This document shows positions 1 to 9,870 of a stretch of DNA of 9,870 nt, in pieces. Source of the DNA: Puniceicoccales bacterium. Its GTDB lineage: Bacteria; Verrucomicrobiota; Verrucomicrobiia; Opitutales; JAIRLG01. The translations under genes and the position numbers were made by a program. The DNA lies in the NCBI GenBank assembly GCA_031288595.1, contig JAITRB010000014.1, positions 1 to 9,870 of the forward strand, given 5' to 3'. The stretch's first letter is position 1. Each line of letters starts with the position of its first letter. The notes under the pieces are model-generated. The model had not been told where the DNA came from. It made no database searches and saw only the letters and a program-made list of their open reading frames with translations.

Positions 1-3
1 AAG

Positions 4-630
4 ATGAGATATCCTCTTGTTAATGGAGGTTTGACGAGGTATTCGCGAAAGAATGGCGGGGTTGTGCTTAATGATAAGGTGGGGAGTGACTGGAATGAGC
101 GCAACGGACCCGTGTGCCAAATTCTCCCTGTTAAGGATAAAGAATTGGTGGTTTATTGGGATAAGAAGAAGTTTTGTGAGAAGAGCCTGGATCCTTGGAG
201 GGATCCTTTTGAGGAGGGGTGGCAGTGGCGAGCTGAAGTGATGAAAGTGGATGGATGGCGAGACCGTATTGAGGCGAAGCGGCGCTTGTGTGAACGCGTC
301 ACGATTCAAGGCTGGGATGGCAAGTCTGAAAATGTGGGTTGTTCGGTGCTTCGATATTCTGGGAGGGGTTGCACCGATGTGTCTATTGCGATCTTTTTGT
401 GTGAGAAGTCGCTGGCGAAGTTCAATGAGGCCAATAGAGTGTGTGAGAGTGTGAGAGCTGCGCGAGCTTTGAGGGTTGGTCTAGCGGATAGTGAGGAAGC
501 TGAATTGAGAGCGGGATTAAAAGGGATGGGATCATGTTTGGGTCGCTTCTTGAATGGAACGGTCGAAGGTGTATTGGGTGATGGTTGGGATATCTTACGT
601 AGATATTGGAAGGGCGGCAGGAGGGCATGA
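4..630 (+). CDS. Hypothetical protein, orphan, rich in Trp/Gly/Cys/Arg/Glu. The frame is open back to base 1, so the gene may be 5'-partial with its true start upstream of the window.
   Basis: 208-codon ORF in a G/T/A-rich, C-poor stretch where stop trinucleotides are common. My hand scan of 1-627 found about 34 TGA/TAA/TAG: 0 in frame 1, about 10 in frame 2 and about 24 in frame 3 (pattern NNT|GAN, NNT|AAN). That is a strong codon-periodicity signal for frame 1. I recognise no family motif. Third codon positions avoid C, unlike every other gene in the window. Confidence 0.6.
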   Translation: MRYPLVNGGLTRYSRKNGGVVLNDKVGSDWNERNGPVCQILPVKDKELVVYWDKKKFCEKSLDPWRDPFEEGWQWRAEVMKVDGWRDRIEAKRRLCERVTIQGWDGKSENVGCSVLRYSGRGCTDVSIAIFLCEKSLAKFNEANRVCESVRAARALRVGLADSEEAELRAGLKGMGSCLGRFLNGTVEGVLGDGWDILRRYWKGGRRA

Positions 631-1130
631 GTGAGGAGGATTTGGGCGTGTGGGGGACTGTTTAATCTTGATTATGGAGATGAGGCTAGTGATGATCCTA
701 TAGAGGATGACTCGAATGCGCCTATGTCGGAAGAGGAAAAGAAGGAGGGAACTTGGAACTGATGCAGAGAGGCTGAACCTGAAAAGGAGTACGCAGGGTG
801 ATTTCGGTGAGACGCTGGTGCTCTTTCTTCAATGAATGAATGTTGTCTTTTTGATGGCTTGGAGGCATTCTTGGGTTCAGGCTATTGGATGGAAGTGCTT
901 CTTTTAAAATGCGTTGCCGATGGGAGGGGAGGGCCTGTGGTCTTGGAGATAGATGAGTGTTTTGAGGGTACAGGACCTTTGACGATGGCTTAGAGTGGGT
1001 GTCATTGGGGAGCATAGCAAAATAACATGAGGAGATGCAGAAGATTGCTGAGCTGGCGAGATCGGGCAGCGCTGAGTCTGAGGAGGATGGGGATGCGGGG
1101 TGACGTTTCTCCGGATGTTCTTGCAATATC

Positions 1131-1409
1131 TTGAAGAGAGGGCTAAGAGAGTGTGCTGATCCTGGAGCTTCTTTTGAGACGAGATCTCTTTCTCTTTGGG
1201 GAAGTGTTCTGGGATCTTCTGTTGCGAGAGGAAGGAGCTTGGTTTCTGAACAGCGGCGTGATTGCCAACGGAGGAAGATGCGGGACGCGTTTTCTCAGTC
1301 GAAGAGGGAAGGATTCGGAAGGAGAGGGCTGTCTCCTGATCCGGATTCTGTGTCCAGGGAAAATTTTCACCGGAAATCTGGGCCTGAGAGTCTGCCTGCG
1401 GGCGAGTGA
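1131..1409 (+). CDS. Possible small basic Arg/Ser-rich protein (92 codons, TTG start). Weakly supported.
   Basis: The six stop trinucleotides I found between 1147 and 1406 all fall in frame 2. That is the frame just before this ORF's frame, the same relationship seen for ORF 4-630. C is also avoided at third positions. The stop at 1407-1409 lies 12 nt before the obg GTG and overlaps its Shine-Dalgarno. The sequence looks low-complexity and disordered, has no recognisable motif, and the exact antisense frame is also open. Confidence 0.25.
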   Translation: MKRGLRECADPGASFETRSLSLWGSVLGSSVARGRSLVSEQRRDCQRRKMRDAFSQSKREGFGRRGLSPDPDSVSRENFHRKSGPESLPAGE

Positions 1410-1412
1410 GGA
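1408..1412 (+). promoter_or_regulatory. Shine-Dalgarno (GAGGA) for obg
   Basis: GAGGA sits 9 nt upstream of the GTG at 1422, which opens the conserved Obg N-terminus (M)FIDEARV. Confidence 0.5.
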
Positions 1413-1421
1413 TGATTTCAC

Positions 1422-2408
1422 GTGTTCATCGATGAAGCCAGGGTGTGTCTGCGAGCCGGTCGTGGCGGCGATGGCTGCCTGAGCTTCCGGCGGGAGAAAT
1501 TCATCCCCAAGGGAGGCCCCGACGGGGGCGACGGTGGGGATGGCGGCAGCATCGTCCTCCTCTGCGATCGGAATGTGGATGAGCTCTCGGCCTATCACTT
1601 TCAACCTCAGGCCGAAGCCGCTTCCGGTGGCCCAGGTCAGGGCAATCGAAGGCATGGGGCGAGGGGGGAATCCTGCCGCCTTCGGGTGCCGATAGGCACT
1701 CTGGTCTACAGCCGACTGAACCATGAACTGGTGGCGGAGCTGACGCAGCCCGGCCAGGAACTCATTCTCCTGCGAGGCGGAAAGGGCGGTTGGGGGAATG
1801 TGCATTTCAAATCCGCCACGCACCAAACGCCCCGGGAGACGACATCCGGCGCCTGGGGGGAAGAGGGGGAATTTCTCTTCGTCCTCAAGACCATGGCCGA
1901 CGTCGGCCTGCTGGGCTTCCCCAATGCTGGTAAATCCAGCCTGCTGTCCCGCCTGACGGCTGCCCAGGCCAAATCGGCCCCCTATCCCTTCACCACCCTC
2001 CAGCCCCAGGTGGGCGTGCTGGAGAGCCCCAAGAGTCGGCGCCGCCTCACGCTGGCCGATATCCCGGGCATCGTGGCCGGAGCCCACGAGAATCGTGGCC
2101 TGGGCCTGCGTTTCCTGCGCCACATCGAGCGCTGTTCCCTCCTGCTCTTCGTCCTGGACATGGCCAGCAGCGACGGGCGTAAGCCCTGGGATGACTATTC
2201 CCAGCTCCTGGAAGAACTGGGCCACTACGACCCGCAGCTGCTCCGAAAAAAACGCTTCGTCCTCGCCAACAAGATGGACCGGCCCGAAGCTCAGCAAAAT
2301 CTTCGGTCTTTTCAGGAGAAAATGGCCCTAAGTCCTTTAGCCATTTCCTGCCATACAGGGGAGGGACTGGAACTTTTGCAGAGACATCTCTTGGATGCCA
2401 TTCCCTAG
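1422..2408 (+). CDS. obg: GTPase Obg/CgtA (short form, 328 aa, no extended C-terminal domain)
   Basis: N-terminal Obg fold signature MFIDEA...GGxGGxGG (GGDGGDGGS), Gly-rich repeats, G1 GFPNAGKSSLL, G3 DIPGI, G4 NKMD. GTG start with an SD upstream; TAG stop at 2406-2408. Confidence 0.95.
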   Translation: MFIDEARVCLRAGRGGDGCLSFRREKFIPKGGPDGGDGGDGGSIVLLCDRNVDELSAYHFQPQAEAASGGPGQGNRRHGARGESCRLRVPIGTLVYSRLNHELVAELTQPGQELILLRGGKGGWGNVHFKSATHQTPRETTSGAWGEEGEFLFVLKTMADVGLLGFPNAGKSSLLSRLTAAQAKSAPYPFTTLQPQVGVLESPKSRRRLTLADIPGIVAGAHENRGLGLRFLRHIERCSLLLFVLDMASSDGRKPWDDYSQLLEELGHYDPQLLRKKRFVLANKMDRPEAQQNLRSFQEKMALSPLAISCHTGEGLELLQRHLLDAIP

Positions 2409-2460
2409 GCATTTTATGGTGGGGATAGTGGTGGAAGTCTTGTGGCCATGGATAAGCTGG

Positions 2461-2559
2461 GAGCGCCTTCAAGCCCAGAGGGCTTGCCCGCTGCGCGGGC
2501 TAGCGGCTGAGGAAAACACCAAGCGTGAGCTTTTGTTTTCCTCAGCCGCGAAGGCGCTC
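2461..2559 (+). ncRNA. Candidate structured RNA or DNA element: a 99-nt four-way junction built from perfect helices. Function unknown; could be an obg 3' structure/terminator, an sRNA or a REP-like element.
   Basis: Closing helix 2461-2470/2550-2559 (10 bp). Hairpin 2471-2476/2480-2485 (6 bp, AGA loop). Hairpin 2486-2491/2495-2500 (6 bp, UGC loop). Long hairpin 2503-2518/2534-2549 (16 bp), extended by 2521-2524/2529-2532 (4 bp) and capped by GUGA. All pairs are Watson-Crick. The GNRA loop exists only on the + strand, which is the basis for the strand call. Confidence 0.4.
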
Positions 2560-2579
2560 AGCTGAGATGAAGCTCGGGA

Positions 2580-2608
2580 TTGATTTCCTCTAGAGCGCCA
2601 TAAATATT
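2580..2608 (+). promoter_or_regulatory. Weak candidate sigma-70-type promoter for valS-proS (TTGATT-N17-AATATT)
   Basis: TTGATT at 2580-2585 and AATATT at 2603-2608 with 17-nt spacing, about 95 nt upstream of the valS ATG. Hexamer match only; the promoter consensus for this organism is unknown. Confidence 0.2.
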
Positions 2609-2703
2609 CGCCTGTTTCCTCGATCGATTCCAGATCCTGGCGATATTTTCATCGCTCAACATTCTGGACAGGGGGGCGAATTTCTTTCTCCTGAAAAGCA
2701 TTG

Positions 2704-5637
2704 ATGGAAGGTTCGGCTAAAGATTCGGCCTCGGAGCCCTTGGCGAAGACCTACGATCCTCGGGCGCTTGAGGAAAAATGGTACCGGCACTACCTAGAAA
2801 GAGAGTCCTTCGAGCCCGATGGGGACAGGGCGAAGGAGCCGTTTACGCTGATGATGCCCCCCCCCAACGTGACCGGAGTCCTGCACATGGGCCACCTGTT
2901 AAACAATACGATTCAGGACATCCTCGTCCGGCGCGCGCGGCAGGAGGGACAGCGGGTGCTCTGGATACCTGGAACCGACCATGCCGGCATTGCCACCCAG
3001 ACGAAAGTGGAAAAAATTCTCACCGCCGAAGGCAGTTCCCGCCAGAGCATCGGCCGCGATGCCTTCGTCCAGAGGGCCAGCGAGTGGCGTGACCAACATC
3101 GGGACATCATCCTGAACCAGCTCCGAAAATTGGGGGTATCGCCCTCCTGGGGACATAAGAAACACACTTTGGATGCGGACTACAGCCGTAGCGTACTCCA
3201 TGGTTTCGTCGAGCTCTATCGGCGGGGCTACATCTACCGCGGCCGGCGCATGGTCCACTGGTGTCCGGTGAGCCAGACCGCACTCAGCGACGAGGAGGTC
3301 CTCATGAAGCCGCAGTCCGGTTTTTTCTACTACGTGCGCTACCGAGACCTCGGTTCGGGAGAATTGCTCACCGTCGCCACGACGCGACCGGAAACGATCA
3401 TGGGCGATGTGGCCCTCGCCGTCCATCCCGGTGACGAGCGTTATCGATCCTGGATCGGGAGAAAAGTCCTTTCGCCGCTGGCGGGGTGCCTTCCTCATGA
3501 TGAGCCCGAGCGACTTTTCCCTCCTGAGATAGATCCTGCGTCAGGCAGGGAGGAGACAGGAGAGATAAGGGATAGAAGTAGCTATGCGGCGAAGTGGGTT
3601 CTGCCCGTCATCGCCGACGAGGCGGTCGATCCCAAGTTCGGCACAGGGGTTCTCAAAATCACACCGGCCCACGACGCCACCGACTTCGAAATCGTCCAGA
3701 GATACAATGGCCGGAACGAGGGCGAAAAATTGCCCTTTCGGGATATTTTCAATCCGGATGCTACGCTGAACGCCAATGCAGGAAAGGAATTCGAAGGTCT
3801 CGACCGCTTCACGGCGCGTGAAAAGCTCGTCCAAATCCTGGAACAAGGGGGGAGCTTGGAGAAAAAGATTCCCCATGAGCATCATGTGGGCTTTTCCGAA
3901 CGAGCCGATGTCCCCATCGAACCGCGACTATCCGAGCAATGGTTCCTGCGCTTTCCCCAGGGAACGGTGGAGGCGGCCAAAAAAGTCGTCCGGGATGACC
4001 TGATTCGCTTCCGTCCGGCGCACTGGAAGAAGACCTACCTGCATTGGCTGGAACATATCCAGGACTGGTGTATCAGCCGCCAGCTCTGGTGGGGACATCG
4101 CATCCCGGTCTGGTATCCCAAGGGAGCTGATCGGAACGATTTGGCCAAAATGCACGTATCCGTCGATGGCCCACCAGATCCCGAGAACTGGGAACAGGAC
4201 GAAGATGTTCTCGATACCTGGTTTTCCTCAGCCTTTTGGTGCCTGGGAACTCTGGGCTGGCCCGATAAAGAGTTCGATGTCTACCGCGATTTCTACCCAA
4301 CGAATGAGCTCGTTACGGGGCCGGACATCATCTTCTTCTGGGTCGCCCGCATGATCCTCATGGGCCTCGAATTCAGGCCTAAAACGGAAAGAGGAGGAGG
4401 GCAGGATGGATCCAAGCTTCCGGCCGAAGAAGCAGGAGAGAGGGACATTCTTCAGAAAAATATCCCCTTCAGGAACGTCTATTTCACCGGCATCATCCGC
4501 GATGCTCAGGGAAGGAAGATGTCTAAGAGTCTCGGAAATTCACCGGAACCGTTGGAGTTGATCGAAAAATATGGCGCCGATGGCCTGCGCCTCGGCCTGA
4601 TCTCCATCGCCCCCCAGGGCCAGGACATTCTCTTCAACGAAGACCAGATCGCCCAGGGGAAATTTTTCTGCAACAAACTCTGGAATGCCTTCCGCCTGCG
4701 CCAGATGCATCGGAACGGGAATGAAAATACTCTTTCTCTGGAGGAAATTATCCGGCGTATCGACGTCGGACGGATGGGAGCGGCGGAACATTTTATCCTC
4801 GCGCAATTCCTATCGCTCAATCGAGTGACCGAAGTGAAGGTGAAGGGCCATGACTTCCAGCGCGCGCTGTGGGAGTGGATATCTTTCTTTCGCCATTCCT
4901 ACTGTGATCAGTACCTTGAGCTTTTCAAGGCCTCGGAGCCGGATGAAAACTGCCGCGCGAGCGCGTTGGCCGTGCAGGACTTCATCCTACGACAGCTCCT
5001 TCTCTGGTTTCATGCCTTCATTCCCTTCGTCACCGAGGAAATCTGGGGTCTGAGCCATTATGGACCGGATGGGGTTTGCCTCATGAACACCCCTCTGCCG
5101 ACCGCAGAGGAACTTGATCGGCGACTTTTGGAGCAGCACGGAGAGTTCCTGGACCTGAAAAGGATCGATGAGGTGCATTCCTATTTCCGCTACCTCGAAA
5201 CCCTGCGCGTCCTCAAGACGAGCTGTGGCCAGGAATCGATGAGAAATGTCTGTATTTATTACAGAACCGATGAGGAAACGGCCGCTGCCATCATCGAGAA
5301 ATTCCGAAGCGCTTTGATGAAAATGGCGGGGCTACAGGATTGTCAACGAGTGTCCCATGACGCGTATTTATCCTATTCACCCTCTAGGACGACCGGAGAG
5401 GTCAGTTTTTTCCTAAATGTGGCTGCCCGTGATGTCGAGGCTGAGCGCCAGCGTATCATCGATGAACTCGCCCAAGCGGGAAAGCTCGCCCAGCTCAATC
5501 TCCAGAAACTCCAGAGCTCGGATTTCAGAACGCGGGCACCTCAACACATCGTCGCGGGGGCCATAGAATCTTTGGAACTGCAGCTTTGCAAGGGGATGGA
5601 ACTCTGTAAGCTCCTTCGAGCTCATCCTCAGCAATAG
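2704..5637 (+). CDS. valS: Valine--tRNA ligase (ValRS, class I)
   Basis: PPPNVTGVLHMGH (HIGH), KMSKS at FTGIIRDAQGRKMSKSLGNS, TTRPETIMGD, KITPAHD, QDWCISRQLWWGHRIP, DVLDTWFSS, and a C-terminal coiled-coil. ATG at 2704; an in-frame TTG at 2701 is the alternative start. TAG stop at 5635-5637. Confidence 0.97.
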   Translation: MEGSAKDSASEPLAKTYDPRALEEKWYRHYLERESFEPDGDRAKEPFTLMMPPPNVTGVLHMGHLLNNTIQDILVRRARQEGQRVLWIPGTDHAGIATQTKVEKILTAEGSSRQSIGRDAFVQRASEWRDQHRDIILNQLRKLGVSPSWGHKKHTLDADYSRSVLHGFVELYRRGYIYRGRRMVHWCPVSQTALSDEEVLMKPQSGFFYYVRYRDLGSGELLTVATTRPETIMGDVALAVHPGDERYRSWIGRKVLSPLAGCLPHDEPERLFPPEIDPASGREETGEIRDRSSYAAKWVLPVIADEAVDPKFGTGVLKITPAHDATDFEIVQRYNGRNEGEKLPFRDIFNPDATLNANAGKEFEGLDRFTAREKLVQILEQGGSLEKKIPHEHHVGFSERADVPIEPRLSEQWFLRFPQGTVEAAKKVVRDDLIRFRPAHWKKTYLHWLEHIQDWCISRQLWWGHRIPVWYPKGADRNDLAKMHVSVDGPPDPENWEQDEDVLDTWFSSAFWCLGTLGWPDKEFDVYRDFYPTNELVTGPDIIFFWVARMILMGLEFRPKTERGGGQDGSKLPAEEAGERDILQKNIPFRNVYFTGIIRDAQGRKMSKSLGNSPEPLELIEKYGADGLRLGLISIAPQGQDILFNEDQIAQGKFFCNKLWNAFRLRQMHRNGNENTLSLEEIIRRIDVGRMGAAEHFILAQFLSLNRVTEVKVKGHDFQRALWEWISFFRHSYCDQYLELFKASEPDENCRASALAVQDFILRQLLLWFHAFIPFVTEEIWGLSHYGPDGVCLMNTPLPTAEELDRRLLEQHGEFLDLKRIDEVHSYFRYLETLRVLKTSCGQESMRNVCIYYRTDEETAAAIIEKFRSALMKMAGLQDCQRVSHDAYLSYSPSRTTGEVSFFLNVAARDVEAERQRIIDELAQAGKLAQLNLQKLQSSDFRTRAPQHIVAGAIESLELQLCKGMELCKLLRAHPQQ

Positions 5638-5645
5638 CCTTCATC

Positions 5646-7184
5646 ATGAGCGATTCTTCCTCAAAGCCCCGCCATGCCATCGCGCCGACACGGGCGGAGG
5701 ACTATCCGGAGTGGTACCAGCAGGTCATTCGGGCGGCAGATTTGGCCGAGCTGAGTCCGGTGCGTGGCTGCATGGTCATCAAGCCCTGGGGCTATGCCAT
5801 TTGGGAACGGATGCAGGCAATTCTTGACGGGAAGTTCAAGGCAATGGGGCATAAGAATGCCTATTTCCCGCTCTTCATCCCATTGCGCTACTTTCAAAAG
5901 GAGGCGGAGCACATCAGCGGTTTCGCCAAGGAGTGCGCCGTCGTGACCCACAGCCGCCTCGAGGCAGGAGAGCAGGGACAGCTGCAGCCAGCCTCGCCAC
6001 TCGAGGAACCCCTCATCGTACGTCCGACCTCGGAGACGATTATCGGCGAGATGTTTGCCCAGTGGATCCATTCCTACCGTGACCTACCGCTGAAGATCAA
6101 CCAATGGGCCAATATCGTGCGCTGGGAAATGCGTACGCGGCTCTTTCTCCGGACAAGCGAATTCCTTTGGCAGGAAGGCCACACGGCACACCGCACGGCG
6201 GCGGAGGCGCAGGAGGAAACCGCCCGTATGCTGGAGGTCTATCGACAGTTTGCCGAGGAGGACATGGCGATGCCGGTCATCTGCGGAGAGAAATCTCCTC
6301 GCGAACGCTTCCCAGGTGCGGTGCAGACCTTTTGCATCGAGGCGATGATGCAGGATCGCAAGGCCTTACAGGCTGGCACCTCGCACTTTTTAGGTCAGAA
6401 TTTCGCCCGTTCGAGCCACATCGCCTTCACCGATGAGAGTGGACAGACAAAGCTGGCCTGGACTACTTCTTGGGGTGTCAGCACGCGGCTCATCGGCGCG
6501 CTCATCATGGCGCACTCTGACGACGACGGCCTCGTCCTGCCACCGCAGCTGGCACCGACACAGGTCATCATTTTGCCGGTAATTCATAGCGATGCTTCCC
6601 GTGCGCCGATACTCGAGTATGCCGAAAGATTGCAGCAGGACTTGCAGCAGAAGCATTTTCGTTCCTCGCCCCTGCGCGTCGAAGTCGATAAGCGGGAACT
6701 GCGCGGCGGGGAGAAAAACTGGGAATGGATCAAAAAGGGCGTCCCCCTGCGCGTCGAAGTTGGAGCACGGGATAGGAGCAATGAGGAGCTCACCTTTTAT
6801 CGCCGCGACCGGGAGACGAAGGCCCGTCAATCGCTGAAACGGGAGATCTTTATTCCCAAAGCAGCGGAAGAATTGGAAGAAATTCAAGATCAGCTCTTGC
6901 GTCGGGCCCAGATTTTTCGTGACCAGCATCTGCTTAAAATCGACAGTCGCGAGACTTTTTACGAGTTCTTCGCTCCCCAGAACCGCGAGAAACCGGAAAT
7001 TCATGGTGGGTTCGCCTGCACCCACTGGAATGGCTCTTCTGCGCTGGAAGAACAGTTACAGCGGGATTTGGGTGTGACCCTCCGCTGCATTCCATTGGGG
7101 GAATCAGGCGAAGAGGAGAAAGGTATCTGTCCTTTTTCCGGAGAGCCGAGTCCTCGCCGTGTCATCTTCGCCAAGGCCTACTGA
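5646..7184 (+). CDS. proS: Proline--tRNA ligase, archaeal/eukaryote-like (T. thermophilus-type) class II form
   Basis: N-terminus ...EDYPEWYQQVIRAADLAE, class II motifs (RPTSET, FLRTSEFLWQEGHT, GTSHFLGQNF), no bacterial-type INS editing domain, and a C-terminal Cys-containing extension ending in the characteristic terminal Tyr (...FAKAY). Starts 8 nt after the valS stop. Confidence 0.96.
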   Translation: MSDSSSKPRHAIAPTRAEDYPEWYQQVIRAADLAELSPVRGCMVIKPWGYAIWERMQAILDGKFKAMGHKNAYFPLFIPLRYFQKEAEHISGFAKECAVVTHSRLEAGEQGQLQPASPLEEPLIVRPTSETIIGEMFAQWIHSYRDLPLKINQWANIVRWEMRTRLFLRTSEFLWQEGHTAHRTAAEAQEETARMLEVYRQFAEEDMAMPVICGEKSPRERFPGAVQTFCIEAMMQDRKALQAGTSHFLGQNFARSSHIAFTDESGQTKLAWTTSWGVSTRLIGALIMAHSDDDGLVLPPQLAPTQVIILPVIHSDASRAPILEYAERLQQDLQQKHFRSSPLRVEVDKRELRGGEKNWEWIKKGVPLRVEVGARDRSNEELTFYRRDRETKARQSLKREIFIPKAAEELEEIQDQLLRRAQIFRDQHLLKIDSRETFYEFFAPQNREKPEIHGGFACTHWNGSSALEEQLQRDLGVTLRCIPLGESGEEEKGICPFSGEPSPRRVIFAKAY

Positions 7185-7287
7185 GCCCCCTTTCTCCCAT
7201 TGTTGCGGGAGAGCATCCTCCGGAATTTGAGGGAAATTTGCTATCGCCTGGGATTGCTGAACGAGACGTGCAGCGCGTGGAATGTCC

Positions 7288-8349
7288 TCAGGCAGAGGGG
7301 ATGGGCGAGGTGCGGATACGAATAATTTCTCTTCGAGAAGATACCTCTAGATCGAGATTGTCTCCCACGTGGGCGAGAAAAATGGCGATGGCCAGGTCTT
7401 CCATGCTGGAGAGGATTTTGTCATTAATGCGCAAAAGCTCATCGCCTACTTGTAGACCGGCCTTTTCCGCTGGGGAATCCTTGTTGACCTGAATGACGCT
7501 CAGCCGATAGCTCCCATTGGGCCGAAGTTCCTGGCTGGCCGAGAATCCGAGGCTAACATGGGAAACGCTACCAGTCCGAAGGAGTTCGTCGACAACCCTG
7601 CGAACGGCGAATGCTGGCAGGATGAAGCTGGAGTGGATGTCCGGCAGAGCGGCGATCAGGATACCGATAAAATTTCCCTGGATGTCGAATACGGGCGAGC
7701 CGCTCTCGCCACCGTCCATCGCCAGGCTGGAACGCCAATAGGGAACGATGAACTTGTGCTCACCGTAGAGGAGATGCCGGCCGCTAATCAGTCCCTGATT
7801 GGGACCTGGGGCCATCCCCAGTTTGCTGCCGATGGAGATGAGGGCCGAACCGATGCGCACTTCCTTTTCCGTAGCATTCTTGAGGGGAATAGAGGTGAAT
7901 CGTTCCGGTCGCTTCAACAGGTGGAGCAGGGCGAGATTGGTCTCAGGGTCGCTCCCTATCTTTTCGGCGGCGAAGGACTCGTCTCCTCTCTCGACCCATA
8001 TTTTTTCCGCCGAGGCTACGACACTGGCCGCGACCACCACATGGGCTTGCTCATCGATAAAAAAACCACTTCCCTCTAAGATCTGAGCACTGTCAGACTT
8101 GGTGTCGGTCCATCCAAGCACCTGCACGACGGCGGAGCGGTTGTTTTCAAAAATGGCCACAGCCGGCTCTTCCTGTTGTGTGATGGAAATCTTCGGAGGG
8201 ACTCCTTCCGATGCACCGGATGAGAGCGCTGTGGGCAATGCCTTCTCTTCCGCCGAGGAACAGCAAACCCCCAGGATAAAAGCCCCTAGAACGCGGAGCC
8301 TTCGGAGGAAATCGTGCGGGGAGAAACTATGAGGCGTAAGGGCAAGCAC
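7288..8349 (-). CDS. HtrA/DegS-like trypsin-fold protein with one C-terminal PDZ domain and an N-terminal signal/anchor. The catalytic triad appears degenerate.
   Basis: Matches to HtrA motifs: GSGFFID, DPETNLALLHL (vs DxxxDLAVLKI), GESGSPVF (vs GNSGGPL). PDZ block: SVIQVNKDSPAEKAGLQVGDELLRINDKIL. Hydrophobic N-terminus LRVLGAFILGVCCSS. GTG start 3 nt after the upstream stop; TGA stop at 7288-7290. Confidence 0.85.
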   Translation of the reverse strand: MLALTPHSFSPHDFLRRLRVLGAFILGVCCSSAEEKALPTALSSGASEGVPPKISITQQEEPAVAIFENNRSAVVQVLGWTDTKSDSAQILEGSGFFIDEQAHVVVAASVVASAEKIWVERGDESFAAEKIGSDPETNLALLHLLKRPERFTSIPLKNATEKEVRIGSALISIGSKLGMAPGPNQGLISGRHLLYGEHKFIVPYWRSSLAMDGGESGSPVFDIQGNFIGILIAALPDIHSSFILPAFAVRRVVDELLRTGSVSHVSLGFSASQELRPNGSYRLSVIQVNKDSPAEKAGLQVGDELLRINDKILSSMEDLAIAIFLAHVGDNLDLEVSSRREIIRIRTSPIPSA

Positions 8350-8352
8350 GCA

Positions 8353-8847
8353 CTAGAAACAGGTGACCGAAGAGGTAGGTCTGAGACCAAGGCTTGGCGA
8401 GTGGCCGGGTAGGCAGTCACAGACGAAGCGCGAAGACCGCCTGTTCGGACTCAGGATGTCCCTCCTGAGCGAACGCAGGGGCGGCATGGGGTCCCGAACA
8501 TACTCTCGGGACAGACAATGGGCCGGCCTATCCCCTCTGGAAGAGGGGCTAAAGGAGCCCTGAATCAGTGGCGAGTTGGAAGAAAAATTGAAGACGACGA
8601 GGGCCAATCCTAGCGCCGCGAGCGAGAGGACGGCAAGCCCTTGTTTCCAGTGATAAAACTTCTCCCGCAACGTCTGCACCGGAGCGGGCCGGGCGCAGAG
8701 CTCCTGCACGCATTTTCGCTCCAGGCTCGCCTCGAAGCGATTCCAGAAGTCCTGCGATGGCTTTTCGGCAGCTTTCAGTTTTAACAATTGCGACAGGCGC
8801 TCATCGGTCATGGGCCTCGTTCGTCGTTGGCACTGATTCTCTCTCAT
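8353..8847 (-). CDS. Putative single-pass anti-sigma factor cognate to the upstream ECF sigma factor
   Basis: Lies between the ECF sigma and the HtrA-like gene with 3-nt gaps on both sides. Short N-terminal cytoplasmic segment, one predicted TM helix (GLAVLSLAALGLALVVF), and a ~75-aa extracytoplasmic tail. No HxxxCxxC zinc motif. An alternative start at Met13 (8811) is preceded by GAGG. The function is inferred from context only. Confidence 0.6.
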   Translation of the reverse strand: MRENQCQRRTRPMTDERLSQLLKLKAAEKPSQDFWNRFEASLERKCVQELCARPAPVQTLREKFYHWKQGLAVLSLAALGLALVVFNFSSNSPLIQGSFSPSSRGDRPAHCLSREYVRDPMPPLRSLRRDILSPNRRSSRFVCDCLPGHSPSLGLRPTSSVTCF

Positions 8848-8850
8848 TTT

Positions 8851-9480
8851 CTAGGCGTATTCCTTTAAAAATTCCTTCAACTGTTCCTTGGCGTAGTGCA
8901 GGCGAGAGCGAACGGTTCCTTCGGAACATTTCAGCACCGCCGCGATTTCCGCGTGGCTCAGGTTCTCGATTTCGTAGAGAACAACGACCATTCGGTGCTT
9001 GTCGGAAAGACGCTGCAGTGCCTCATTGAGCTTTTCCTGAAGTTCTCCGAGATAGGCACTTTTGTCCGAAGTATCCGCCGTCGAGACGGTGCGCCAGAAG
9101 CTTCCCCCGATGCCCTGTTCATCGATGGCCTGAACGCTGAAGAACTGCCGGCGCTTGTTCCTGCGGACGTGCTCCAGAGTTTTGTTGACCCCGATGCGGT
9201 AAAGCCAGCTGAAGAAGCTGGATTTCCCCTTGAAAGAGTGGATGCAGCGGAAGGCCTGGATGAAAATGTCCTGCGTCAGGTCAGCTGCGTCGGCCGCATG
9301 GGAGATCATGTGATAGACTAGGCCGTAGAGGCGCTCGCGGTAGCGGCGGACCAGGAGGTCGAACGCGCAGCGATCCCCTTCCCGTACCCGGACGACCAGA
9401 GCCCACTCCTCATCCCGAAGAGCCTCTCTTTCCCCTAGCCCTTCTTGGGGAATGCCGATGGACTTCGATGCGAAGGACAT
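8851..9480 (-). CDS. ECF (group 4, RpoE-like) RNA polymerase sigma-70 family factor
   Basis: Region 2: FDLLVRRYRERLYGLVYHM...DAADLTQDIFIQAF...FFSWLYRIGVN. Region 4 helix-turn-helix: VVVLYEIENLSHAEIAAVLKCSEGTVRSRLHYAKEQL. Length (209 aa) is typical for the family. Confidence 0.93.
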   Translation of the reverse strand: MSFASKSIGIPQEGLGEREALRDEEWALVVRVREGDRCAFDLLVRRYRERLYGLVYHMISHAADAADLTQDIFIQAFRCIHSFKGKSSFFSWLYRIGVNKTLEHVRRNKRRQFFSVQAIDEQGIGGSFWRTVSTADTSDKSAYLGELQEKLNEALQRLSDKHRMVVVLYEIENLSHAEIAAVLKCSEGTVRSRLHYAKEQLKEFLKEYA

Positions 9481-9544
9481 GGGGAAAACCCTAGTGGCCT
9501 TTCGCCGGCATTCAAGTTTAAAACGGAAGTCATCCGCTGCTGGA

Positions 9545-9573
9545 TTGACAGGAGCTTGCCGGGTATTTAGCGT
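9545..9573 (+). promoter_or_regulatory. Candidate sigma-70-type promoter for gpsA (TTGACA-N17-TAGCGT)
   Basis: Perfect -35 TTGACA at 9545-9550, 17-nt spacer, then a TAnnnT hexamer at 9568-9573. The gpsA ATG follows only 14 nt later with no SD, implying a very short leader. Sequence match only. Confidence 0.3.
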
Positions 9574-9587
9574 TGCCTCCCGCTTTT

Positions 9588-9870
9588 ATGAAGATTGCCA
9601 TCGTCGGAGCCGGGGCCTGGGGAACTGCGGTGGGGATTTTGTGCGCCAGGGCGAAGCACAGGGTCACCTTTATCACGCAGTTCGCGGAGCAGGCCGTTAT
9701 GCTGAAGAAGCTGGGGGAGAATGCGGAATTTTTAGCCGGTGTTCCCGTTCCACCGGAAATTGAAGCCACGGCCGATTACAGCGCACTGTCGGAGCAGGAA
9801 TGTATCTTTTTTGCCTGCCCGTCTAAGGTACTGCCAGAGGTCTGTCAGCGAGTCAGCGCCTGTTCCTTGG
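9588..9870 (+). CDS. gpsA: NAD(P)H-dependent glycerol-3-phosphate dehydrogenase, 5' part (runs off the right window edge)
   Basis: My translation of frame 3 from the ATG at 9588 gives MKIAIVGAGAWGTAVGILCARAKHRVTFITQFAEQAVMLKKLGENAEFLAGVPVPPEIEAT... This shows the Rossmann GxGxxG and the GpsA-typical ENxxFLxGxxLP block. It is absent from the ORF track because it has no stop inside the window. Confidence 0.88.
   Translation, partial: MKIAIVGAGAWGTAVGILCARAKHRVTFITQFAEQAVMLKKLGENAEFLAGVPVPPEIEATADYSALSEQECIFFACPSKVLPEVCQRVSACSL

Follow-up and report, generated by a model that had tools for sequence, protein, structure and literature searches.

Extreme single-strand cytosine depletion upstream of obg in a Puniceicoccales contig, at the edge of an accessory island

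Cytosine deamination of the non-template strand has reportedly been associated with transcription in E. coli, and transcription-associated asymmetry moves base ratios by a few percent across genes. In vertebrate mitochondria, the strand that is left single-stranded in replication becomes G+T-rich, and the sense strand of ND6 is C-poor. (See also PMC4182315.) Here we analyze a 9,870-bp stretch of DNA from a Puniceicoccales bacterium (the window), which is the entire contig JAITRB010000014.1 of an NCBI/JGI metagenome-assembled genome (MAG), and in which the sense strand upstream of the GTPase gene obg is strongly depleted of cytosine from position 1 to ~1330. This segment (the block) is truncated by the left contig end. 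Accessory islands of unusual composition are a known type; what sets this one apart is the extreme loss of cytosine from a single strand. Literature searches found no published account of a comparable local skew in a bacterial chromosome, and a local guanine-cytosine (GC) skew of 0.45-0.65 over kilobases, in genes and spacers of a chromosome with 50-57% GC, is beyond the range described for replication- or transcription-linked asymmetry.

The block resembles transcription-associated deamination in that T takes the place of C on the sense strand while G-to-A change does not follow, as seen at synonymous sites, and it differs in the ~7-fold change in C:T odds, in its restriction to one island and in the unaffected composition of the co-oriented obg. 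Mitochondrial asymmetry is of comparable size, is strongest at four-fold sites and is ascribed to deamination of single-stranded DNA (ssDNA); however, it extends over a whole replicon and is linked to replication, whereas the island is a local segment without A-to-G enrichment at neutral sites. The ssDNA phages (Inoviridae, Paulinoviridae, Microviridae) share with the block a G+T-rich sense (packaged) strand and small, co-oriented, poorly conserved genes, but the skew of the block is 2.5-3.5 times stronger, and the block is chromosomal, lies beside obg and has no hallmark gene or PHROG match. In the four ssDNA phages that we checked, whole-genome skew was -0.02 to +0.18 and the highest 800-nt window reached 0.29. 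The nearest of the four in direction was Propionibacterium phage B5 (L169, NC_003460), a filamentous phage of a high-GC host with G 38%, C 26%, T 23% and A 13% (GC skew +0.18, AT skew -0.28). The "extreme GC skew" of gene transfer agent clusters was computed in 10-kb windows, with a cumulative deviation of only ~+/-0.03, and is an order of magnitude below that of the block. Finally, horizontally acquired genomic islands are likewise absent at the same site in relatives, lower in GC than their flanks (here 50% vs 57-63%), rich in orphan genes and unusual in codon usage; unlike the present one, typical islands deviate symmetrically, and no integrase, tRNA or flanking repeat is found in the visible part here. 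We know of no description of an extreme single-strand C deficit as an island feature.

Composition of the block and its boundary with obg

The preliminary description of this stretch reported a C-depleted, G-rich block with 147 C in positions 1-1140, and our base counts reproduced this number exactly (C 12.9%, G 36.8%, T 26.5%, A 23.9%). The C content was 18.5% in 1141-1421, and C and G amounted to 27.9% and 29.4%, respectively, in 1422-9870. In 300-nt windows, GC skew was 0.43-0.59 across 1-1200, followed by 0.36, 0.31 and 0.13 and then values of ~0; the skew of the remaining contig was ~0.03, and the C deficit in 1-1140 relative to it corresponded to z = -11.3. As a yardstick we used 161 obg loci from genomes and metagenomes, comprising 2 Mb and 38,880 windows of 800 nt. 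A skew of at least 0.45 occurred only in one contig of 26% GC (L147) and in L001, a duplicate assembly of the window; L001 aside, no window of these loci with at least 45% GC approached the skew of the block. The sense-strand skew of 3,242 open reading frames (ORFs) of at least 200 codons had a mean of 0.005 and a standard deviation of 0.079, and that of ORF1, which occupies the left end of the block, was 0.49. The skew was present at each codon position, extended to synonymous sites and also covered a 700-nt stretch without coding signal, which bears out the earlier view of it as a property of the DNA segment rather than of the usage of one gene.

The Logan contig L001 (run SRR14710895) is identical to window 386-4091 at 99.9% of positions, and because this second assembly reproduces the block/obg junction, a chimera is unlikely. 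The sole difference between the two assemblies within the block is at position 977, with C in the JGI/NCBI contig and T in L001; this is a sense-strand polymorphism in the expected direction, and it is anecdotal. No G-quadruplex motif was found in the block and no tRNA or tmRNA in the window.

The right boundary proved to be gradual. It had been described as sharp and placed just before the obg GTG at 1422, but the maximum-likelihood change point for C content was at 1328, with a ramp from ~1141 and no step at 1421, and positions 1374-1421 are held in common with the closest relative, L162, which shows a similar fade across the last ~400 nt upstream of obg. In obg the composition is ordinary, with a skew of -0.01 and four-fold C and T of 0.49 and 0.11, and the gene marks the host side of the boundary. 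Three more distant relatives (L163, L164 and L165) carry a conserved ~60-nt motif upstream of obg, probably a promoter or leader, which in the window and in L162 is replaced by ~50 nt of their own. The motif reads GGCTTTGCRCTTGCCAAGyCTAAGGyGACCCTGATGTTG and lies at 7540-7614 in L163, 1620-1695 in L164 and 5780-5851 in L165. No sigma-70-like promoter was found on the + strand of 1-2800, and a promoter and terminator scan gave signals at shuffle level.

Coding content and relatives of the island

The frame of ORF1 contains 1 stop in 210 codons, whereas the minimum in dinucleotide shuffles averages 9.3 (P<0.0005), and its codon positions follow the usual G1/A2 pattern, with C at 12-13% in each. 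At NCBI, ORF1 is MDR3143752.1, labelled "partial", of a Puniceicoccales MAG. A full HMMER pass over 1.84 billion representatives identified a sole homologue, P0123 (E = 2e-23), which is gene A of the contigs L166 and L172; it is 40% identical to ORF1 over 124 amino acids from ORF1 residue 29 (pairwise E = 1e-29), and the best tblastx score between the two was obtained on the + strand. ORF1 is thus protein-coding on two counts, namely an open frame beyond chance and a homologue at the protein level. The ATG at position 4 had been taken as its start; however, the frame is open to base 1 and the homology carries on upstream in L172. Because gene A of L172 (at least 456 codons) aligns from ORF1 residue 29, ORF1 is the C-terminal part of a larger protein.

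In a word-indexed search of 5.8 billion proteins, ORF1 matched only itself, as did the ORF upstream of obg in L162. No ORF of the block, L162, L166 or L172 had a match in Pfam, NCBIfam, PADLOC or PHROGs, a PDB profile search with ORF1 gave no match, and island sequences had none in INPHARED (50,697 phage records) or 72,556 plasmids, both searched with protein and DNA, or in IMG/VR. AlphaFold2 models of ORF1 (from a 2-sequence alignment) and of P0122 had predicted local distance difference test (pLDDT) scores of 33 and 31, respectively, and were unusable.

Downstream of ORF1, the equally C-poor positions 631-1330 have no significant coding signal. Frame +1 contains 7 stops and the other two contain 14 and 15, a contrast that is not significant against shuffles (P = 0.13), and three-base periodicity is weak. 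Positions 631-762 are an in-frame, acidic continuation of ORF1, and a 53-amino-acid ORF at 832-993 is called by JGI. A long decayed frame +1 ORF through 631-1419 was considered and rejected; its 7 stops, versus 16 and 17, are suggestive (P = 0.07-0.13). The stretch has no significant similarity to the sequence or spacers of L162 or L166, and it probably consists of gene remnants or decayed genes, or of untranslated island spacer. An origin as a decayed multi-copy family, one of three options offered in the preliminary description, was sustained only in part, in that ORF1 is a member of a small family and decay may have affected 631-1330. Internal repeats were not seen: tandem, direct and inverted repeat scans and self-BLAST of the block gave short matches at chance level only.

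The asymmetry has a distinct signature at synonymous sites. At four-fold sites, C:T was 102:217 in island genes versus 647:196 in host genes (odds ratio [OR] 0.14, P = 8e-45), and G:A was 234:58 versus 452:164 (OR 1.46, P = 0.03); in the window alone, the OR for C:T was 0.18 (P = 7e-8) and G:A was not significant. Such a pattern marks C-to-T change confined to the sense strand, without complementary G-to-A, which is the textbook signature of single-strand cytosine deamination. The fraction C/(C+T) in two-fold, pyrimidine-ending (NNY) codons was 0.18-0.29 in the island versus 0.53-0.73, and codon choice differed from that of the host for Arg (AGR 48% vs 16%), Leu (TTR 61% vs 17%) and Asp (GAT 85% vs 55%). 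A preference for U-ending NNY codons opposes translational selection. Since four-fold synonymous sites are shifted, the asymmetry goes beyond an amino-acid effect. Protein composition has changed as well: Pro, Thr, Ala, His and Gln together fall from ~25% to 11% in island proteins, and Gly, Trp, Cys, Val, Arg (AGR) and Lys, and also Asp and Glu, which have C-free, purine-rich codons, are enriched. It is this replacement of amino acids, at codon positions 1 and 2, that gives rise to the G excess.

Obg assigned the host to Puniceicoccales/Opitutia, and a genome scan with Obg returned relatives at no more than 59% identity. A metagenome scan with Obg, in which generic G-domain peptides dominated, yielded neither a close relative nor an extension of the contig to the left. 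Synteny upstream of obg, to which the preliminary description had pointed as a way of telling insertion from ancestral sequence, was informative in relatives whose Obg is 68-71% identical: the gene order is ruvA-obg-valS-proS in L164 and enolase-ruvA-obg in L163 (both 70-71%) and RDD-obg-valS-proS in L165 (68%), and skew upstream of obg is ordinary in all three, within +/-0.25. In L162, whose Obg is 87% identical (86% at the nucleotide level) and which shares the ~50-nt obg leader with the window and lacks the ~60-nt motif, skew is 0.31-0.40 over the 1.8 kb directly upstream of obg. A single orphan ORF lies in this region; it has at least 589 codons, is still open where the contig ends and shows no similarity to the block. 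Because L162 holds a skewed, unrelated orphan gene at this site while the ~70% relatives have a normal ruvA-obg arrangement, window 1 to ~1330 is the obg-proximal edge of a lineage-specific accessory island that displaces ruvA-promoter-obg. Two features of genomic islands were found here, an ancestral arrangement in relatives (ruvA-obg or RDD-obg with normal skew) and an atypical composition (GC 50% in the block vs 56-63% in host core genes; four-fold C 0.17 vs 0.39-0.49). No integrase, tRNA target or flanking direct repeat was seen in the visible part of the island, which is cut by the contig end.

The same composition is found around the homologue of ORF1. In L166 and L172, C is 10.5-11.6% and skew is 0.55-0.65 across three co-oriented ORFs (gene A, a 68-amino-acid ORF and the start of a signal-peptide protein) and their spacers. 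The preliminary description held that a homologue of ordinary composition would speak against an unusual history of the block; the contigs of the sole homologue are even more C-poor. Because a homologue of 40% identity lies on equally skewed contigs, the asymmetry is a family trait rather than a recent burst, and C-poverty is a shared, long-maintained property of a small multi-gene island that abuts obg in the clade of the window and L162. The island is known from the window and L001, from L162 and from L166/L172, fragments of one sample group with 1.3-1.8 kb visible, and every contig that carries island sequence ends inside it.

The ORF of L162 is built of tandem units (Table 1) that show 63 differences, distributed over codon positions 1, 2 and 3 as 22, 33 and 8, with a ratio of nonsynonymous to synonymous substitution rates (dN/dS) of ~1.9, which suggests diversifying selection or relaxed constraint on this Trp/Gly-rich repeat protein. 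A diversity-generating retroelement was considered and rejected, as the window has no reverse transcriptase domain and the block no repeat pair; adenine mutagenesis of the kind produced by such elements was likewise rejected for the L162 units, whose differences are bidirectional (G>A 16, A>G 10).

The third ORF of the homologous contigs (L166 1100-1309, L172 1588-1797) has an evident signal peptide at its start (MKKYFLVAAIAWVAGVSVWA/EG), and LPFLWKWDAESG comes next. The latter ("LWKWDA" motif) weakly resembles LLPGGPALWKWRKDDGG of the L162 repeat protein. These sequences hint that the island may encode secreted Trp-rich proteins.

Genes without Pfam matches also occur elsewhere on the contigs of two of the ~70% relatives, at L164 7485-10103 and L163 8708-10552 (- strand), with a mildly elevated sense-strand skew of +0.09 to +0.20 and a low four-fold C of 0.16-0.25. 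In these orphan genes A is raised as well, which is the ordinary AT-rich pattern of foreign genes, unlike the pure C-to-T shift of the island.

Possible causes of the asymmetry

The analysis shows that the block belongs to an island, that ORF1 is coding, that C-poverty runs in the family and that synonymous sites carry the C-to-T signature; the cause of the asymmetry we infer. Our favored explanation, held tentatively and with slightly less than even confidence, is that strand-specific C-to-U(T) deamination has acted over a long time on the sense strand of an accessory island that evolves fast. This strand would be exposed as ssDNA when displaced as the non-template strand of a heavily transcribed or R-loop-prone unit, R-loops being favored by G-rich non-template strands, or, alternatively, during an ssDNA phase of a mobile element. 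Deamination would then act on weakly constrained, fast-evolving genes until they are near a C-poor equilibrium. The same C-poor composition of the non-coding positions 631-1330 and the skew of phage B5 in the same direction are consistent with this explanation. Foreign DNA with strand-specific C-to-T change was also the best supported of the origins named in the preliminary description, since the ruvA-obg relatives are normal, four-fold C has gone to T and purines are unchanged; its "recently acquired" part is not supported, as the homologue at only 40% identity has the same composition, and no hallmark of the ssDNA element that it envisaged was found. If the cause is mutational, the island is a natural record of a very strong strand-specific deamination regime, produced by R-loops, ssDNA exposure or an enzyme, and would show how far proteins can be pushed into C-free codons (Gly, Trp, Cys, Arg and Val up; Pro, Thr, His and Gln down).

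Several observations weigh against long-acting deamination. A skew of 0.45-0.65 is far above known transcription-associated asymmetry and that of the four ssDNA phages. In ORF1, synonymous sites are not poorer in C than codon positions 1 and 2 (0.12-0.13 throughout), and at codon position 2 it is G, not T, that substitutes for C; a pure C-to-T drive predicts neither pattern, and selection against C fits equally well. Immediately downstream, the co-oriented obg seems to have lost its ancestral promoter, but its four-fold composition is normal; if transcription is the cause, the transcription unit or the process must stop upstream of obg. No di- or trinucleotide context of the deaminase type was detected in the C loss, and no C-containing or RNase motif was missing. 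In addition, the 1.3-1.8 kb fragments show no gene for mobility or replication and none for a deaminase, and the known fragments number three or four, from one sample group.

An unlikely, if credible, alternative is that selection keeps the sense transcript, with its untranslated 700-nt tail, rich in G and poor in C. Such a transcript would evade Rho or a C-dependent endoribonuclease and allow read-through into the essential obg. Rho loads on C-rich, G-poor, unstructured RNA. Selection of this kind would account for the even C deficit across codon positions and non-coding DNA, for the move of amino-acid usage to C-free codons and for the gain of G rather than T at position 2. Transcription from further upstream may serve obg, whose ancestral motif is gone and for which the scan of the + strand gave no promoter. 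Over >1 kb, the antisense of the block has 36% C and 13-14% G, and for 631-1421 (791 nt) the minimum free energy is -137 kcal/mol for the antisense and -262 kcal/mol for the sense strand, so that the antisense is C-rich, G-poor, weakly folding and automatically rut-like. However, four-fold C was lost almost exclusively to T although the host prefers G over T, as expected from mutation, with the reservation that transitions are also the easiest path under selection; L166 and L172 are equally C-poor with no obg in view; and no C-containing motif has been specifically eliminated. If the cause is selective, whole operons would have been shaped to evade C-dependent RNA surveillance such as Rho.

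An integrated ssDNA mobile element, such as an inovirus-like prophage or a rolling-circle element, in which the packaged or displaced strand is the sense strand and undergoes C-to-T deamination, is doubtful. Small, co-oriented orphan ORFs, signal peptides and Gly-rich or acidic tails are typical of filamentous phages. The ORFs of the island are co-oriented orphans, several of them small, one with a signal peptide and one with Gly-rich and acidic tails; the block is inserted relative to the ruvA-obg relatives; its skew has the direction of that of phage B5; and the assemblies break off within the blocks, a behavior also seen with tandem or multi-copy elements. On the other hand, the phage, plasmid and IMG/VR searches and the PHROGs gave no match, and no Zot/pI ATPase, HUH replication initiator or integrase was seen in the 1.3-1.8 kb fragments. 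Furthermore, the tandem-repeat gene of L162, with its at least 589 codons, is unlike inoviruses, and the reference ssDNA phages are far less skewed.

We consider improbable a variant in which locus-restricted, strand-specific C-to-U hypermutation remodels an island of secreted or surface orphan proteins, either through a deaminase acting on the displaced sense strand of an R-loop unit or through an edited RNA or cDNA intermediate. If true, it would account for the sense-strand C loss, for the unalignable sequence at the same site in the two closest relatives and for the dN/dS of ~1.9 in L162, and it would be a bacterial analogue of targeted somatic hypermutation.

The remaining explanations are essentially excluded. 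That the protein composition of an ordinary gene, rich in Gly, Trp and acidic residues, produces the skew by itself is highly improbable: ORF1 has 11.5% Gly and 4.3% Trp, and the L162 ORF 13.8% and 7.1%, but synonymous sites are shifted to the same extent, and the 700-nt non-coding stretch and the L166 spacers are equally C-poor. A long, structured, G/U-rich non-coding RNA, another option of the preliminary description, is more improbable again, for although the sense strand has by far the more stable fold of the two strands, Rfam gave 0 matches at the gathering threshold, the fold had z = -1.66 (20 shuffles; antisense z = +1.3), positions 1-630 are coding with a protein-level homologue, and the spacer has no significant conservation. 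The G-poor, weakly folding antisense that formed part of that option does exist, as a direct consequence of composition. Sites of Rho utilization (rut) are ~80 nt long and function on the transcribed strand. An antisense RNA of the block would have the rut-like composition (C-rich, G-poor, weakly folding, at least 80 nt), over >1 kb, as a compositional property only; it would come from the strand opposite the genes, and the likeness is probably a by-product of composition. Least probable of all is an assembly or sequencing artefact (a chimera or G-overcalling): contigs do end inside the skewed blocks and the two assemblies may stem from related or identical read sets, but the junction is identical in both, ORF1 is intact with statistical significance, the homologue from another sample is equally C-poor, and L162 shows the same phenomenon at the same site.

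Whichever cause applies, the skew provides a simple compositional marker for such islands in metagenomes, and it may account for assembly breaks and orphan proteins in such regions.

Features of the window and neighboring genes

Table 1. Coordinates of the features discussed (positions refer to the window unless another contig is named).
Feature	Position	Strand	Remarks
ORF1, 3' part of protein-coding gene	1..630	+	209 codons; stop TGA 628-630; runs off left contig end
C-depleted stretch, no significant coding signal	631..1330	+	C ~13%
Transition zone	1141..1373	+	C ~13% to ~22%; per-60-nt counts, change-point analysis, skew profile
obg leader	1374..1421	+	48 nt in common with closest relative L162 (alignments)
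obg (GTPase Obg/CgtA, 328 aa)	1422..2408	+	Pfam GTP1_OBG 1.6e-53, MMR_HSR1; full-length relatives
L162 repeat ORF	L162 1-1771		JGI 3300042618 Ga0466723_124170; at least 3 tandem 846-bp (282-codon) units, 91% identical, gapless

The JGI product for obg has 240 amino acids (P0004). Because the 328-amino-acid frame from GTG 1422 aligns over its full length with all relatives, the start chosen by JGI is probably too far downstream. A 109-codon ORF at 1153-1482 overlaps the true obg start.

On the - strand, positions 7288-9480 hold an extracytoplasmic function (ECF) sigma factor (8851-9480), a 164-amino-acid protein that faintly matches anti-sigma factors (8353-8847) and an HtrA-like protease with Trypsin_2 and PDZ domains (7288-8349), a cluster that looks like an envelope-stress module.

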